From a virus (Duplodnaviria; Heunggongvirae; Uroviricota; Caudoviricetes), in IMG/VR virus record IMGVR_UViG_2585427737_000008: DNA of 8,386 bases. One strand, written 5' to 3'. The notes beneath the pieces were generated by a model, which was not told the origin of the DNA, searched no databases, and saw only the letters and a list, made by a program, of their open reading frames with translations. Each line of letters starts with the position of its first letter. Position 1 is the stretch's first letter. The translations under genes and the position numbers were made by a program. Positions 1,562 through 8,386 of the stretch are shown here, piece after piece.

Positions 1562-2956
1562 ATGGGCGGCGGAAAACCGGCGGCGCGGCAGGGTGACATG
1601 ACCCGCAAGGGACTGGATATTGTGCAGGGTTCAGCAGGGGTGCTGATAGGTGCGCCAACCGGTGTGGCCTGCTCGGTGTGTCCCACAAAAAAGGACAGTC
1701 CGAACTATGGCAGCCCGGTGAACCCGCTACTCGGTGCGAAGGTTCTGCCTGTTGAAACCGACCTGGCACTGCCCGGCCCGCTGCCGTTTATTCTTTTCCG
1801 CGCCTACAGCAGCTACCGGACCAGGACGCCCGCGCCAGTGGGCGTGTTTGGTCCCGGCTGGAAAGCGCCCTTCGATATCCGCTTACAGATACGCGATGAA
1901 GGCCTGATACTCAACGACAGCGGTGGTAGGAGCATTCACTTTGAGCCGTTGTTTCCCGGCGAGATAAGCTACAGCCGCAGCGAGTCACTCTGGCTGGCGC
2001 GGGGCGGAGTAGCGGCGCAGCACAGTTCGCAGCCGCTAAGCGCGCTCTGGCAGGTGCTGCCGGAAGATGTTCGCCTGAGTCCGCATGTGTACCTGGCGAC
2101 AAACAGCCTTCAGGGGCCGTGGTGGATACTCAGCTGGCCGGAGCGGGTGCCGGGGGCGGACGAGGTGCTGCCGCCGGAGCCGCCCGCATACCGGGTGCTG
2201 ACGGGCGTGGTGGACGGCTTCGGGCGGACGCTGGCCTTTCACCGGGCGGCGGAGGGTGACGTGGCGGGCGCGGTGACGGGGGTGACGGACGGCGCGGGCC
2301 GCCGTTTTCACCTGGTGCTGACCACACAGGCGCAGCGGGCGGAAGCCTTCCGTAAACAGCGCGCCACGTCTTTATCTTCCCCTGCCGGTCCCCGTTCTGC
2401 TTCCTCTTCTCTGGTTTTCCCCGACACGCTGCCCGCCGGTACAGGATACGGTGCCGATAACGGTATCCGGCTGGAGGCGGTGTGGCTGACACACGACCCG
2501 GCATACCCGGATGAACAGCCGACTGCGCCGCTGGCGCGCTACACGTACACGGCCAGCGGAGAACTGCGGGCGGTGTATGACCGCAGCGGGACGCAGGTTC
2601 GCGGGTTTACTTATGATGCGGAGCACGCCGGGCGGATGGTGGCGCACCATTATGCGGGGAGGCCGGAGAGCCGCTACCGGTATGATGATACCGGTCGGGT
2701 GACGGAGCAGGTCAACCCGGAGGGGCTGGACTACCGCTTTGAGTACGGAGAGAGCCGGGTAATCATCACGGACAGCCTGAACCGGCGGGAGGTGCTGTAC
2801 ACGGAAGGCGAGGGTGGCCTGAAGCGGGTGGTGAAGAAGGAGCATGCCGACGGGAGCATCACCCGCAGCGAGTATGATGAGGCGGGGAGGCTGAAGGCGC
2901 AGACGGATGCGGCGGGGCGGCGGACGGAGTACCGGCTGCATATGGCGTCGGGCTGA
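1562..2956 (+). CDS. Rhs family protein, N-terminal segment (PAAR motif plus first YD-repeat region); upstream half of a split rhs gene
   Basis: 464-aa ORF beginning MGGGKPAARQGD...GSAGVLIGAPTGVACSVCP (literal PAAR motif), closely resembling E. coli Rhs N-termini as I recall them. YD-type repeats (RYRYDDTGR, RSEYDEAGR) appear near the end. Terminates at TGA 2954-2956, whereas intact Rhs proteins continue in this region. Confidence 0.8.
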   Translation: MGGGKPAARQGDMTRKGLDIVQGSAGVLIGAPTGVACSVCPTKKDSPNYGSPVNPLLGAKVLPVETDLALPGPLPFILFRAYSSYRTRTPAPVGVFGPGWKAPFDIRLQIRDEGLILNDSGGRSIHFEPLFPGEISYSRSESLWLARGGVAAQHSSQPLSALWQVLPEDVRLSPHVYLATNSLQGPWWILSWPERVPGADEVLPPEPPAYRVLTGVVDGFGRTLAFHRAAEGDVAGAVTGVTDGAGRRFHLVLTTQAQRAEAFRKQRATSLSSPAGPRSASSSLVFPDTLPAGTGYGADNGIRLEAVWLTHDPAYPDEQPTAPLARYTYTASGELRAVYDRSGTQVRGFTYDAEHAGRMVAHHYAGRPESRYRYDDTGRVTEQVNPEGLDYRFEYGESRVIITDSLNRREVLYTEGEGGLKRVVKKEHADGSITRSEYDEAGRLKAQTDAAGRRTEYRLHMASG

Positions 2957-2960
2957 CTAG

Positions 2961-5789
2961 GTGACGGGGCCGGACGGCAGGACGGTGCGGTATGGCTATA
3001 ACAGCCAGCGGCAGGTGACGTCAGTGACGTACCCGGACGGGCTTCGCAGCAGCCGGGAGTATGATGAGAGGGGAAGGCTGACGGCGGAGACCTCGCGCAG
3101 CGGTGAGACAACGCGGTACAGCTATGATGACCCGGCGAGTGAGCTGCCGACAGGGATACAGGACGCGACGGGCAGTACAAAACAGATGGCATGGAGCCGT
3201 TACGGTCAACTGCTGGCCTTCACGGACTGCTCGGGGTACACGACGCGGTATGAGTACGACCGGTACGGTCAACAAATCGCCGTTCACCGGGAAGAAGGCA
3301 TCAGCACTTACAGCAGTTATAATCCGCGTGGCCAACTGGTCAGTCAGAGGGATGCGCAGGGGCGTGAGACCCGTTATGAGTACAGCGCCGCAGGCGACCT
3401 GACAGCGACGATATCACCGGACGGTAAACGCAGCACCATCGAATATGATAAACGCGGGCGTCCGGTGAGTGTGACGGAAGGCGGACTGACGCGCAGCATG
3501 GGGTATGACGCCGCCGGGCGCATCACCACGCTGACTAATGAGAACGGCAGCCAGTCCACGTTCCTGTATGACCCGGTGGACAGGCTGACGGAGCAGCGCG
3601 GCTTTGATGGCAGGACGCAACGTTACCAGTATGACCTGACCGGAAAACTCACGCAGAGTGAAGACGAGGGACTTATCACCCTCTGGCACTACGATGCGTC
3701 GGACCGCATCACGCACCGGACGGTGAACGGCGACCCGGCGGAGCAGTGGCAGTATGATGAGCACGGGTGGTTAACCACCATCAGCCATACCAGTGAAGGC
3801 CACCGCGTGGCGGTCCACTACGGCTATGACGATAAAGGCCGCCTGACGGGCGAACGGCAGACGGTGGAGAACCCGGAGACGGGGGAGATACTGTGGGAGC
3901 ATGAGACGGGGCATGCATACAGCGAACAGGGGCTGGCGACCCGTCAGGAGCCGGACGGCCTGCCGCCGGTGGAGTGGCTGACGTATGGCAGCGGTTATCT
4001 TGCGGGGATGAAGCTGGGCGGAACGCCACTGGTCGAGTACACGCGGGACCGGCTGCACCGGGAGACGGTGCGCAGCTTCGGCGGGGAGGCCTGTGAACTT
4101 GCCACCGCCTGGAATACCAGCGGCCAGCTACAGAGCAGGCACCTGAACCTTCCGCAGCTTGACTGTGACTATACGTGGAACGATAACGGACAACTAATCC
4201 GCATCAGCGGCCCGCAGGAGAGCCGGGAGTACCGTTACAGCGACACGGGAAGGCTGACGGGCGTCCACACCACGGCGGCGAACCTGGATATCGATATCCC
4301 GTATGCGACGGACCCGGCAGGAAACCGGCTGCCGGACCCGGAACTGCACCCGGACAGCACCCTCACGGCATGGCCGGATAACCGCATCGCGGAAGATGCG
4401 CACTATGTCTACCGCCACGATGAATACGGCAGGCTGGCGGAGAAGACGGACCGCATCCCGGAAGGGGTGATACGGATGCACGACGAGCGGACCCACCACT
4501 ACCACTACGACAGCCAGCACCGCCTGGTGTTCTACACGCGGATACAGCATGGCGAGCCACTGGTCGAGAGCCGCTACCTCTACGACCCGCTGGGACGGCG
4601 AATGGCGAAACGGGTATGGCGGCGGGAGCGTGACCTGACGGGGTGGATGTCGCTGTCGCGTAAACCGGAGGTGACATGGTACGGGTGGGACGGTGACAGG
4701 CTGACGACGATACAGACCGGCACCACGCGTATCCAGACGGTGTACCAGCCGGGGAGCTTCACGCCGCTCCTGAGAATCGAAACAGAGAATGGCGAACAGG
4801 CGAAGGCGCGGCACCGTAGCCTGGCGGAGGTGTTGCAGGAGGACACGGGTGTGACGCTACCGGCGGAGCTGGCGGTGATGCTGGGGAGGCTGGAGCGGGA
4901 ACTGCGCGCGGGAGCGGTGAGTGCGGAGAGTGAGGCATGGCTTGCGCAGTGCGGGCTGACGGCGGAACAGATGGCCGCGCAGATGGAGGCGGAATACATC
5001 CCGGAGAGGAAACTTCATCTTTACCACTGTGACCACCGTGGACTGCCGCAGGCGCTCATCACCCCGGAAGGCGAAACGGCGTGGTGCGGGGAGTATGACG
5101 AGTGGGGGAACCAGCTTAAGGAGGAGACCCCGCATCCCCTGTCCCAGCCGTACCGTTTGCCGGGGCAGCAGTATGATGAGGAGTCGGGACTGTATTACAA
5201 CCGTCACCGGTACTACGATCCGTTGCAGGGGCGGTATATCACCCAGGATCCGATAGGGTTGAAGGGGGGAATAAATCTATACACGTATCCACTGGCACCA
5301 ATACGTTACACTGATCCACTGGGGTTAGAACGAGTTATAAGTGTATATGGGCCTCCCGCTCCAGACCGGGCAGGTGCTGAAACTCCTCTTGTTCTTACTG
5401 ATATGACTGGAGGAGTGACTATTTATTATGATCCTGAAACAGGTGATTCAATGACTTTTGATAGTAGCAATAGAATTGATCGTCGTTCTCAACGTGGTGC
5501 TGGTGATCCATATACAGGTGAAGTCGTTGGTTGTGAGACAAATGAATCAGGAATATCGGCAGCATATGGCACAACGAAGATCTATACTACAGATACTAGA
5601 GCAAGATGGCTACATGGTGGGGGATCATCGTTGCGCGATCCTTATGCTCCTCGACAAGGCTGGAAACCAACTATGGGATGTACCCGTGCACAGAATGAAG
5701 ATGTAGATGAGTTGTGTAAGAAAGTGACAAGTTGGATGTATTCGCATCCTGGAGAGAGAATTAGATATGAACGTTTTAAGACACGTTAA
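2961..5789 (+). CDS. Rhs family protein, YD-repeat shell/core plus polymorphic C-terminal toxin domain; downstream half of the split rhs gene
   Basis: 942-aa ORF in the +1 frame relative to 1562..2956, opening with GTG at 2961 immediately after an in-frame TAG. Numerous YD repeats (RYEYD, RYSYDD, RYQYD), the conserved core end [26 protein letters not shown]...YTDPLGL, then a 153-aa AT-rich C-terminal domain; TAA stop 5787-5789. Whether it is translated independently is unknown. Confidence 0.8.
5328..5786 (+). other. Rhs C-terminal polymorphic toxin domain (Rhs-CT), candidate L,D-transpeptidase-like fold
   Basis: Begins right after DPLGL (5313-5327) and is AT-rich against the GC-rich core. 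Contains WLHGGG, then 22 residues later [19 protein letters not shown], resembling the YkuD pattern H-x(n)-[ST]-x-G-C-x-R-x-x-N-x-D-[IV]-x-x-L. Assignment is by motif recollection only. Confidence 0.4.
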
Positions 5790-6159
5790 TGCGATTAACA
5801 TGGGAGTGTGCATTCTAATTTTGGTTATTGGATGTGCAAATGCTAAAGTTCTTAAACGATGTATATTACCCGCTCCTGATGGTGGCGTAGAAAAACTATC
5901 AAAACCCAACTTACATGGAGTAATTAAAAAAGTTGATTTGAACACAAATGAAGCGGAAATTAAAATAAAAGAGGGGGGGGCAGTGAGTTTTATTTTTAAT
6001 GAGGAAACATTGTATTTTACTGTTTTTGGTGGGGATTTTATTATGGATGATTTAAAAAAAGTAAAAAATACGGAAGCATGGGTATGGTATAAAAATTGCG
6101 ATAGTAAAAATAAAAATGTGGCAGTTGAACTTCTTCAAATCTACGAATTGCATCAATGA
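5767..6159 (+). CDS. Small lipoprotein, putative cognate Rhs immunity protein (RhsI)
   Basis: 130-aa ORF overlapping the rhs 3' end by 23 nt. N-terminus [23 protein letters not shown] has a charged n-region, hydrophobic core and lipobox (VIG|C). AT-rich like the toxin domain; TGA stop 6157-6159. An alternative ATG at 5800 would leave too short a signal peptide. Confidence 0.65.
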
Positions 6160-6199
6160 AAAATATAGTTAAATAGAGGAGGTTATTAATAGCAGGAAA

Positions 6200-6337: not shown

Positions 6338-7474
6338 ATGGAACTTAAAAAATTGATGGAACATATTTCTATTATCCCCGATTACAGACAAGCCTGGAAA
6401 GGGGAGCATAAATTATCGGATATTCTACTGTTAACTATTTGTGCCGTTATTTCTGGTGCAGAGGGTTGGGAAGATATAGAGGATTTTGGGGAAACACATC
6501 TCGATTTTTTGAAGCAATATGGTGATTTTGAAAATGGTATTCCTGTTCACGATACCATTGCCAGAGTTGTATCCTGTATCAGTCCTGCAAAATTTCACCA
6601 GTGCTTTATTAACTGGATGCGTGACTGCCATTCTTCAGATGATAAAGACGTCATTGCAATTGATGGAAAAACGCTCCAGCACTCTTATGACAAGAGTCGC
6701 CGCAGGGGAGCGATTCATGTCATTAGTGCGTTCTCAACAATGCACAGTCTGGTCATCGGACAGATCAAGACGGATGAGAAATCTAATGAGATTACAGCTA
6801 TCCCAAAACTTCTTAACATATTGGATATTAAAGGAAAAATCATCACAACTGATGCGATGGGATGCCAGAAAGATATTGCAGAGAAGATACAAAAACAGGG
6901 CGGTGATTATTTATTCGCGGTAAAAGGAAACCAGGGGCGGCTTAATAAAGCCTTTGAGGAAAAATTTCCGCTGAAAGAATTAAATAATCCAGAGCATGAC
7001 AGTTACGCAATCAGTGAAAAGAGTCACGGCAGAGAAGAAATCCGTCTTCATATTGTTTGCGATGCCCCTGATGAACTTATTGATTTCACGTTTGAATGGA
7101 AAGGGCTGAAGAAATTATGCGTGGCAGTCTCCTTTCGGTCCATAATAGCAGAACAAAAGAAAGAACCCGAAATGACGGTCAGATATTATATCAGCTCTGC
7201 TGATTTAACTGCAGAGAAGTTCGCCACAGCGATCCGAAATCACTGGCACGTGGAGAATAAGCTGCACTGGCGCCTGGACGTGGTAATGAATGAAGACGAC
7301 TGCAGAATAAGAAGAGGAAATGCAGCGGAATTATTTTCAGGGATACGGCACATTGCTATTAATATTTTGACGAATGATAAGGTATTCAAGGCAGGGTTAA
7401 GACGTAAGATGCGAAAAGCAGCCATGGACAGGAACTATCTGGCGTCAGTCCTTGCGGGGAGCGGGCTTTCGTAA
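6338..7474 (+). CDS. ISAs1-family transposase (H-repeat-associated protein, YhhI/YdcC/YbfD-like)
   Basis: 378-aa [67 protein letters not shown]..., which matches my recollection of the E. coli H-repeat-associated proteins nearly residue for residue. Strong SD, TAA stop 7472-7474, uninterrupted. Confidence 0.9.
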
Positions 7475-8075: not shown

Positions 8076-8386
8076 ATGAGAATTGATTATAGTATTAGCA
8101 ATGAACACGCAGAGAAATTTATCAGTCTTTTAGTGTTGGGTGTTTTATATTCTATTGAAAAAAAGCAATATCTATAGATGAGGCAGAAGGTTTTATATTT
8201 AAGCCATCTACGTCAAAAACATTGAATGCTGCATCGCACTCTAAAAACTTAATTGACATTATAGATTCTGGTTGTGAGCTTGAAGATATATCTAGCATCA
8301 TTCCTGAAAATTTATCAGGTAATATTGATAAATTAATTAACCAGACGCTGGATTTTATTCGAGGTGCTCCTGATTTTGGCGGTGCA
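8076..8386 (+). pseudogene. Putative immunity gene for the upstream orphan toxin, apparently frameshifted at an A7 tract; 3' end beyond window
   Basis: ATG at 8076 overlaps the upstream TAA (TAATG). It encodes only 33 aa (MRIDYSISNEHAEKFISLLVLGVLYSIEKKQYL) before TAG 8175-8177. The +2 frame is open from 8159 to the window end (…AISIDEAEGFIFKPSTSKTLNAASHSKNLIDIIDSGCELEDISSIIPENLSGNIDKLINQTLDFIRGAPDFGGA) with no ATG or GTG start. Adding one A to the A7 run at 8158-8164 fuses the two. Confidence 0.35.

Follow-up and report, generated by a model that had tools for sequence, protein, structure and literature searches.

A one-off, non-programmed lesion interrupts a vgrG-linked rhs toxin gene in a draft Escherichia coli assembly

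Is an rhs toxin gene that reads in two pieces split by design, broken by mutation or wrongly assembled? The question is raised by a stretch of DNA of 8,386 nucleotides (nt), filed as a Caudoviricetes virus under IMG/VR record IMGVR_UViG_2585427737_000008 and called the window hereafter, which is the entire contig JORD01000172.1 of the draft assembly GCA_000713025.1 of Escherichia coli 6-319-05_S1_C2. Its rhs gene, linked to vgrG of a type VI secretion system (T6SS), is interrupted by 11 nt that hold a stop codon in each forward frame. A first-pass annotation had offered four readings of this interruption: a natural small-deletion pseudogene, a split gene expressed as two polypeptides by termination–reinitiation, a sequencing or assembly error, or an engineered stop cassette. 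Here we conclude that a vgrG-linked rhs toxin gene, intact in other respects, carries a one-off lesion that is not programmed, and that, artefact or mutation alike, the 11 nt as deposited do not form an element for regulation or recoding. As to its origin, we lean towards a consensus artefact that arose in the computer and not in the cell, a reading that we hold with slight rather than firm confidence.

Read directly from the sequence, the interrupting stretch TGACTAGGTGA occupies positions 2954–2964 and has the TGA, TAG and TGA codons in three different frames, with the upstream open reading frame (ORF) ending at the first of them, as the first-pass annotation had described; the downstream ORF that it placed in the +1 frame from GTG 2961 is likewise confirmed, running over 2961–5789. 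Alignment to intact rhs orthologues, the check that it had recommended, defines the change as the replacement of GCGGTGACAGC by TGACTA, that is, 11 nt by 6 nt with a net loss of 5 nt. This shortfall against intact alleles agrees with the earlier estimate of about 5 missing nt, but the event is a complex replacement and not the small deletion that had been proposed for a pseudogene; an equivalent alignment has GCGG deleted and AGC changed to TA. Where intact alleles read TCGGGC-GCGGTGACAGC-GGTGACGGGG, encoding SGAVTAVTGP (A-type codons TCG GGC GCG GTG ACA GCG GTG ACG GGG CCG), the window reads TCGGGC TGACTA GGTGACGGGGCCG. The intact peptide given in the annotation, SGDITDITTPDGR, is not that of the closest relatives, which read SGAVTAVTGPDGR or SGKLTSVILPDGR instead.

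Only two of the three stops, TGA 2954 and TAG 2958, are new. The third, at 2962–2964, is native and sits in a heptamer, GGTGACG, that is present off-frame in every intact allele, leaving TGACTA(G) as the truly new sequence. Off-frame TGA triplets are very common in the rhs core (n = 85). Closure of all three frames within 11 nt occurs twice on the + strand of the window, at 2954 and 6166, and shuffled rhs core gives an expectation of 0.06 such closures per 3.5 kb, which makes the cluster at 2954 uncommon. The other closure (6166–6176, the TAGTTAAATAG region) lies in AT-rich intergenic DNA just past the stop of the immunity gene. Because 5 nt are lost, the downstream ORF is read in the +1 frame with respect to the upstream ORF, and because TAG 2958–2960 lies in that frame the ORF finder begins its 942-codon ORF at GTG 2961; with all three frames closed, no single shift of ±1 or ±2 can join the fragments. 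Compared with intact close homologues, the rhs ORF is disrupted: the frame that runs continuously from loading domain to toxin in homologues of 1410–1411 amino acids (aa) is broken at 2954–2960. An imperfect inverted repeat, CGTCGGGCT ... GGCCGGACG at 2946–2976, flanks the lesion and places it in a possible hairpin loop.

The junction is private to this contig. A 61-nt region was searched with BLAST in 5,426 complete E. coli genomes. It has 3,448 copies, spread over 2,538 of these genomes; the junction is found in 0 of the 3,448, none has any lesion at this site, and the best matches, at 89.4%, are the intact A-type allele. GTDB species representatives and Joint Genome Institute (JGI) metagenome contigs likewise lack the junction in exact and gapped pattern scans, and for the 464-aa and 921-aa products the only contig with an exact record is that of the window. 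As junction and truncated product are confined to a single contig, the split is not conserved. The surroundings are those of an intact gene: about 250 nt on each side of the lesion are identical to many intact alleles, and, the junction apart, the window is identical over 2700–3200 to an allele that many complete genomes share, the rhs2-type or A-type allele. In the search for the copy of the sibling colonies, five full-length proteins repaired in silico had no exact match, and the immunity protein led only to long contigs of other strains.

A search for a donor of the new bases, in the window and in E. coli, was negative. No 10- or 11-mer containing them recurs in the window on either strand, and the few 7–9-mer repeats are mostly native flank. 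One 19-nt match, TAGGTGACGGGGCCGGACG in E. coli PSS-07 (NZ_AP027673.1; locus L006, 2990–3019), was considered as a donor and rejected: it is a VasL|rhs deletion junction, and we regard the match as a coincidence because its TAG is native to VasL and the join uses GGTGACG microhomology. The PSS-07 deletion, seen in one record only, removes T6SS core genes and the 5′ part of rhs and fuses a truncated VasL gene to rhs at GGTGACG, the same heptamer that borders the lesion in the window. An ancestral allele of the form ...TCGGG(N)CTGACTAG(N)GTGACGGGG (SGxLTRVTGP), from which two small deletions would lead to the window, was not found either; it is absent from metagenome contigs and GTDB representatives (gapped pattern) and from complete genomes (61-nt BLAST).

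The lesion falls exactly in a 19-nt patch (2950–2968) in which rhs paralogues of one genome, of two forms called A-type and B-type, have 16 differing positions, framed by flanks that are identical between the two for 196 nt on the left (2754–2949) and 40 nt on the right (2969–3008); the nearest differences from the B-type copy beside the patch are at 2753 and 3009. The B-type allele reads TCTGGAAAGCTGACTTCAGTGATACTG, encoding SGKLTSVILP. Up to three of the lesion bases (C2953/2957, T2958 and A2959) agree with the B-type in register, amid an A-type background. In all related complete loci with two rhs genes that we fetched (L002, L009, L010 and L016), A-type and B-type patches lie about 7 kb apart, in either order. 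Each form thus occurs in either of the neighbouring rhs genes across genomes, and frequent exchange between paralogues is therefore implied.

Across the loci compared at window positions 2950–2968 (L001, L002, L004, L005 and L009–L016), the patch alleles are SGAVTAVTGP in three DNA variants, SGAVTGP and SGKLTSVILP. The second of these is that of O111:H- 11128, which has one copy of a 9-nt unit, GCGGTGACN, where A-type alleles have two, at the same position as the lesion. The two peptides, SGAVTAVTGP and SGAVTGP, differ by a clean 9 nt that keeps the frame, whereas the change in the window is out of frame. Judged from these allele sequences, the length polymorphism shows the patch to be a mutable, repeat-containing spot. 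Slippage of the tandem GCGGTGACN × 2 was nevertheless rejected as the origin of the lesion, since it predicts an in-frame 9-nt change and not the observed string.

The gene around the patch is mosaic in turn. Outside a core segment painted site by site as A-type (Table 1), six single-nucleotide polymorphisms are all that separates the window from the TW10722 rhs1 locus; TW10722 rhs1 is B-type where the core segment of the window is A-type. The first 740 nt of the gene, together with the 5′ switch, are identical in the vgrG-linked rhs of the complete genome 19SZHZ663Rt. Because it is present in that genome, at least the 5′ switch of the mosaic is natural, and the proposal that the whole of 1950–3300 is an assembly chimera is to that extent rejected. 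The same mosaic combination occurs in no complete genome, the best match over 1700–3600 reaching 97.6%.

The isolate is a colony from the baseline stool of a Tanzanian child less than one year old, of phylogroup B1 and serotype O115:H5, its sample being printed as SRSS568161 (PMC6222053, Table S1); it was sequenced as 100-bp HiSeq 2000 reads and assembled with MaSuRCA 2.3.2 (PMC6222053). Two further colonies of the same stool, S1_C1 (assembly JORT00000000) and S1_C3 (JORE00000000), have the same serotype and sequence type (ST) 443, while the ST of this assembly is given as ‘unknown’ (PMC6222053).

Of the four readings offered at the outset, the natural pseudogene and the sequencing or assembly error survive. 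Both place the event at a collision of paralogues; only the site of that collision, computer or cell, sets them apart. MaSuRCA builds super-reads from the 100-bp Illumina reads and passes them through a Celera consensus, and a patch like this one, 19 nt of variable sequence between exactly shared flanks, is where the assembly graph branches. Ends that stem from different paralogues meet there, and a tolerant overlap and consensus step can emit a garbled hybrid; the true gene would then encode an intact 1410-aa Rhs protein reading ...MASGAVTAVTGPDGR... at this point. For bacteria, the error rate that MaSuRCA advises for the merging of contigs is a very tolerant one. We infer the consensus step as the source, and favour an artefact, because the sequence comes from a draft short-read assembly of a multi-copy family and the lesion lies exactly at the paralogue-variable patch, a branch point of the graph; because it is multi-base, lacks a donor and looks partly hybrid; because no lesion at the patch occurs among the 3,448 finished-genome copies; and because the surroundings are clean, with intact-like flanks and no second defect in the gene. 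The ‘unknown’ result of multilocus sequence typing, set beside the ST443 of same-stool colonies that share the serotype, is a weak hint in the same direction. Several points weigh on the other side. Short-read assemblers rarely create new k-mers; we could not derive the observed string by hand as a simple column consensus of the A and B patches; the next paralogue-variable stretch, 3009–3300, is cleanly A-type with no sign of mixing; and complete genomes commonly hold rhs genes with genuine frameshifts. The rival is a genuine and very recent pseudogenizing mutation, in which a complex indel replaced 11 nt by 6 in the lineage of the isolate, a reading that we regard as possible though short of probable. 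Such an indel may have arisen, for example, from an aberrantly resolved exchange or a template switch between A-type and B-type rhs paralogues at the divergent patch. The disruption is unambiguous in the deposited sequence, and finished genomes often carry broken rhs genes (frameshifts are annotated in TW10722 rhs2 and 19SZHZ663Rt rhs, and L009, L010 and L016 have a split rhs2). Furthermore, the allele is a natural-looking mosaic, part of which recurs in a complete genome; the absence of a second defect fits a young lesion; and as the exact mosaic allele is in no complete genome, a lesion shared by the whole lineage could be missed. Against a mutation stand the 3,448 complete-genome copies, all unlesioned at the patch, and the rarity of this mutational type, for which no template can be identified. 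The truncated protein is also unrecorded for the two same-stool, same-serotype colonies, a weak point in that their contigs may break elsewhere.

The other two of the four readings are unsupported or contradicted. A functional split gene, in which translation stops at TGA 2954 and is resumed by reinitiation at GTG 2961, 2985 or 3024, or by a hop, is in our judgement very unlikely, and we have as little expectation that it would yield a toxin-bearing product still delivered by the T6SS. It has several formal attractions: stop and restart are 4 nt apart, the downstream 942 codons are fully open, AGGTGA precedes GTG 3024, and a matched pair of glycine codons has a stop directly after the take-off codon, but these remain formal possibilities only. 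One version would have two Rhs pieces, with Shine–Dalgarno (SD)-independent reinitiation at GTG 2961 and shell pieces reassembling non-covalently; another, a formal possibility, would have a 22-nt hop from GGC 2951–2953, which UGA follows, to the in-frame GGC 2976–2978, past AGGUGA, giving a full-length Rhs minus ten residues. We give both, even as low-level expression, very little credence; nothing supports them, and glycine codons are ubiquitous in the gene. The first-pass annotation rightly saw no SD at GTG 2961, where the anti-SD duplex of −2.8 kcal/mol is weaker than the background mean of −4.35 kcal/mol; the values for GTG 2985 and GTG 3024 are −5.7 and −7.0 kcal/mol, the latter within the top 28% of the background and hence unremarkable, as 28% of positions score as well. 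No promoter-like site is found in 2700–3200, and the local RNA folds no more stably than shuffled sequences do (z = −0.9). A programmed split or recoding thus has neither the conservation (0 of 3,448 copies, and none in GTDB representatives or metagenome contigs) nor the signals (no SD, closed frames, no stimulatory fold) expected of it. With RHS repeats detected to its left and right, the break lies inside the YD-repeat shell, and the C-terminal fragment would lack the part with DUF6531 that loads onto VgrG. A C-terminal Rhs piece without the N-terminal loading region should not mount on VgrG. As for a three-frame stop cassette engineered into the gene by allelic exchange or recombineering, we consider it the least credible reading of all, close to negligible. 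Three stops in three frames within 11 nt are typical of such cassettes and rare by chance, but the isolate is a wild faecal one from a field cohort, its records point to no genetic manipulation, one of the three stops is native, GACTAGGT contains no SpeI, XbaI, NheI or AvrII site and no standard linker, and nothing in the rest of the 8.4 kb looks foreign.

Apart from frame continuity, the gene is in each tested feature a typical vgrG-linked Rhs polymorphic toxin. The coordinates of its parts and neighbours are collected in Table 1. The partial vgrG ends 75 nt upstream of rhs, in a context that matches the annotated T6SS locus of TW10722, and Pfam places the DUF6531 of the loading region at aa 50–127 of the N-terminal fragment. 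RHS repeats stand on either side of the break, followed by the RHS core (PF03527, aa 686–721 of the C-terminal fragment by Pfam) with DPLGL, and the C-terminal fragment shows no further disruption relative to the intact 1410–1411-aa homologues. As predicted from sequence, a variable C-terminal tail adjoins a small, presumed immunity gene. The YkuD match of the tail, 21.6 bits, is below the Pfam cutoff of 23.4; such a weak match would suggest a peptidoglycan-targeting toxin, presumably comparable to the Salmonella T6SS effector Tlde1. No relative of solved structure was found for the toxin domain by sequence. The exact 130-aa presumed immunity protein is very widespread, lying beside intact Rhs genes in many genomes.

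Table 1 Coordinates of the features of the window
Feature	Position	Strand	Evidence and remarks
vgrG 3′ part (T6SS spike), cut by the contig start	1–1486	+	Pfam Phage_GPD, Phage_base_V and Gp5_trimer_C; collinear with annotated TW10722 VgrG
N-terminal rhs fragment, 464 aa	1562–2956	+	Start at ATG 1562; DUF6531 and first RHS repeats; ends at the new TGA 2954–2956; KEM11090.1
rhs core mosaic segment	1950–3300	+	Follows the A-type allele (TW10722 rhs2, 600468 rhs2); site-by-site painting
Three-frame stop stretch	2954–2964	+	TGA 2954–2956, TAG 2958–2960, TGA 2962–2964; one per forward frame
Lesion	2954–2959	+	TGACTA where intact A-type alleles have GCGGTGACAGC; alignments and allele table
C-terminal rhs fragment, mechanical ORF, 942 aa	2961–5789	+	RHS repeats; RHS core PF03527 at about 5016–5123; DPLGL 5313–5327; 153-aa toxin domain
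Best internal start candidate	3013–3026	+	AGGTGA 3013–3018, then in-frame GTG 3024; used by the gene caller (921-aa product)
Variable C-terminal toxin domain (putative), 153 aa after DPLGL	5328–5786	+	G+C falls; weak YkuD / L,D-transpeptidase-like match
Immunity gene (presumed cognate), 130 aa, intact	5767–6159	+	Overlaps the rhs stop by 23 nt
ISAs1-family (H-repeat) transposase gene	6338–7474	+	Pfam DDE_Tnp_1_assoc and DDE_Tnp_1; TW10722 annotation
DUF3969 gene start, contig ends inside	8222–8386	+	In related genomes precedes the second rhs gene (rhs2)

Between the ISAs1 transposase gene and the DUF3969 gene lies an ORF of 150 aa. Both ends of the contig (1 and 8386) fall in repeated genes, inside vgrG and inside the DUF3969 gene before rhs2; the contig nevertheless crosses an ISAs1 copy and the rhs core, both of which are usually multi-copy. 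The rhs2 gene of related loci, with a DUF6973-type tail, is itself split at the same place in several independent genomes into overlapping ORFs of 833 or 782 aa and 396 aa (L009, 8731–12391; L010 and L016, 8883–12390; L002, from 11502 onward), and the annotation of TW10722 calls it ‘frameshifted’. This rhs2 frameshift looks shared among genomes and is probably genuine.

If the lesion is real, the N-terminal fragment keeps the VgrG-loading part without the toxin, and the C-terminal part has no loading domain; with loading part and toxin separated, the toxin would go undelivered while the intact immunity gene would still protect. The isolate would then have lost the delivery of one T6SS Rhs toxin and kept the immunity, a common fate of rhs genes. 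The case also carries a caution for short-read drafts, in which short hypervariable patches in multi-copy rhs genes can give false frameshifts, and ‘split’ Rhs proteins such as KEM11090.1 then enter protein databases as though they were genes.

Set beside known systems, the interruption is an ordinary, assembly-private disruption and nothing new in kind. Phage T4 gene 60 is an example of translational bypassing. The break in the window resembles it, and termination–reinitiation, in having a stop right after a glycine codon and a restart or matching landing codon nearby. Unlike gene 60-type systems, it comes without conservation, an SD for the restart or a stable take-off structure, and the likeness is purely formal. 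The closest counterpart is the intact gene of TW10722 (WP_001763881.1, 1410 aa), which has the same gene order (hcp–vgrG–rhs–immunity–ISAs1–hypothetical–DUF3969–rhs2) and the same toxin and immunity module, and is annotated as one ORF, ‘RHS element core protein’. Intact vgrG-linked Rhs effectors such as this one are read as one uninterrupted ORF; the window differs from it in the 11-to-6-nt replacement and in the A-type core segment. A second likeness is to frameshifted pseudogenes, namely TW10722 EXA02_RS28930, 19SZHZ663Rt KZO16_RS24030 and the rhs2 genes of L009, L010 and L016, which have the core in two ORFs and the downstream module intact, as in the window. Their breaks, however, lie elsewhere in the gene and some are recurrent, whereas that of the window stands at a patch disrupted in none of the complete genomes and is seen in one draft assembly only.

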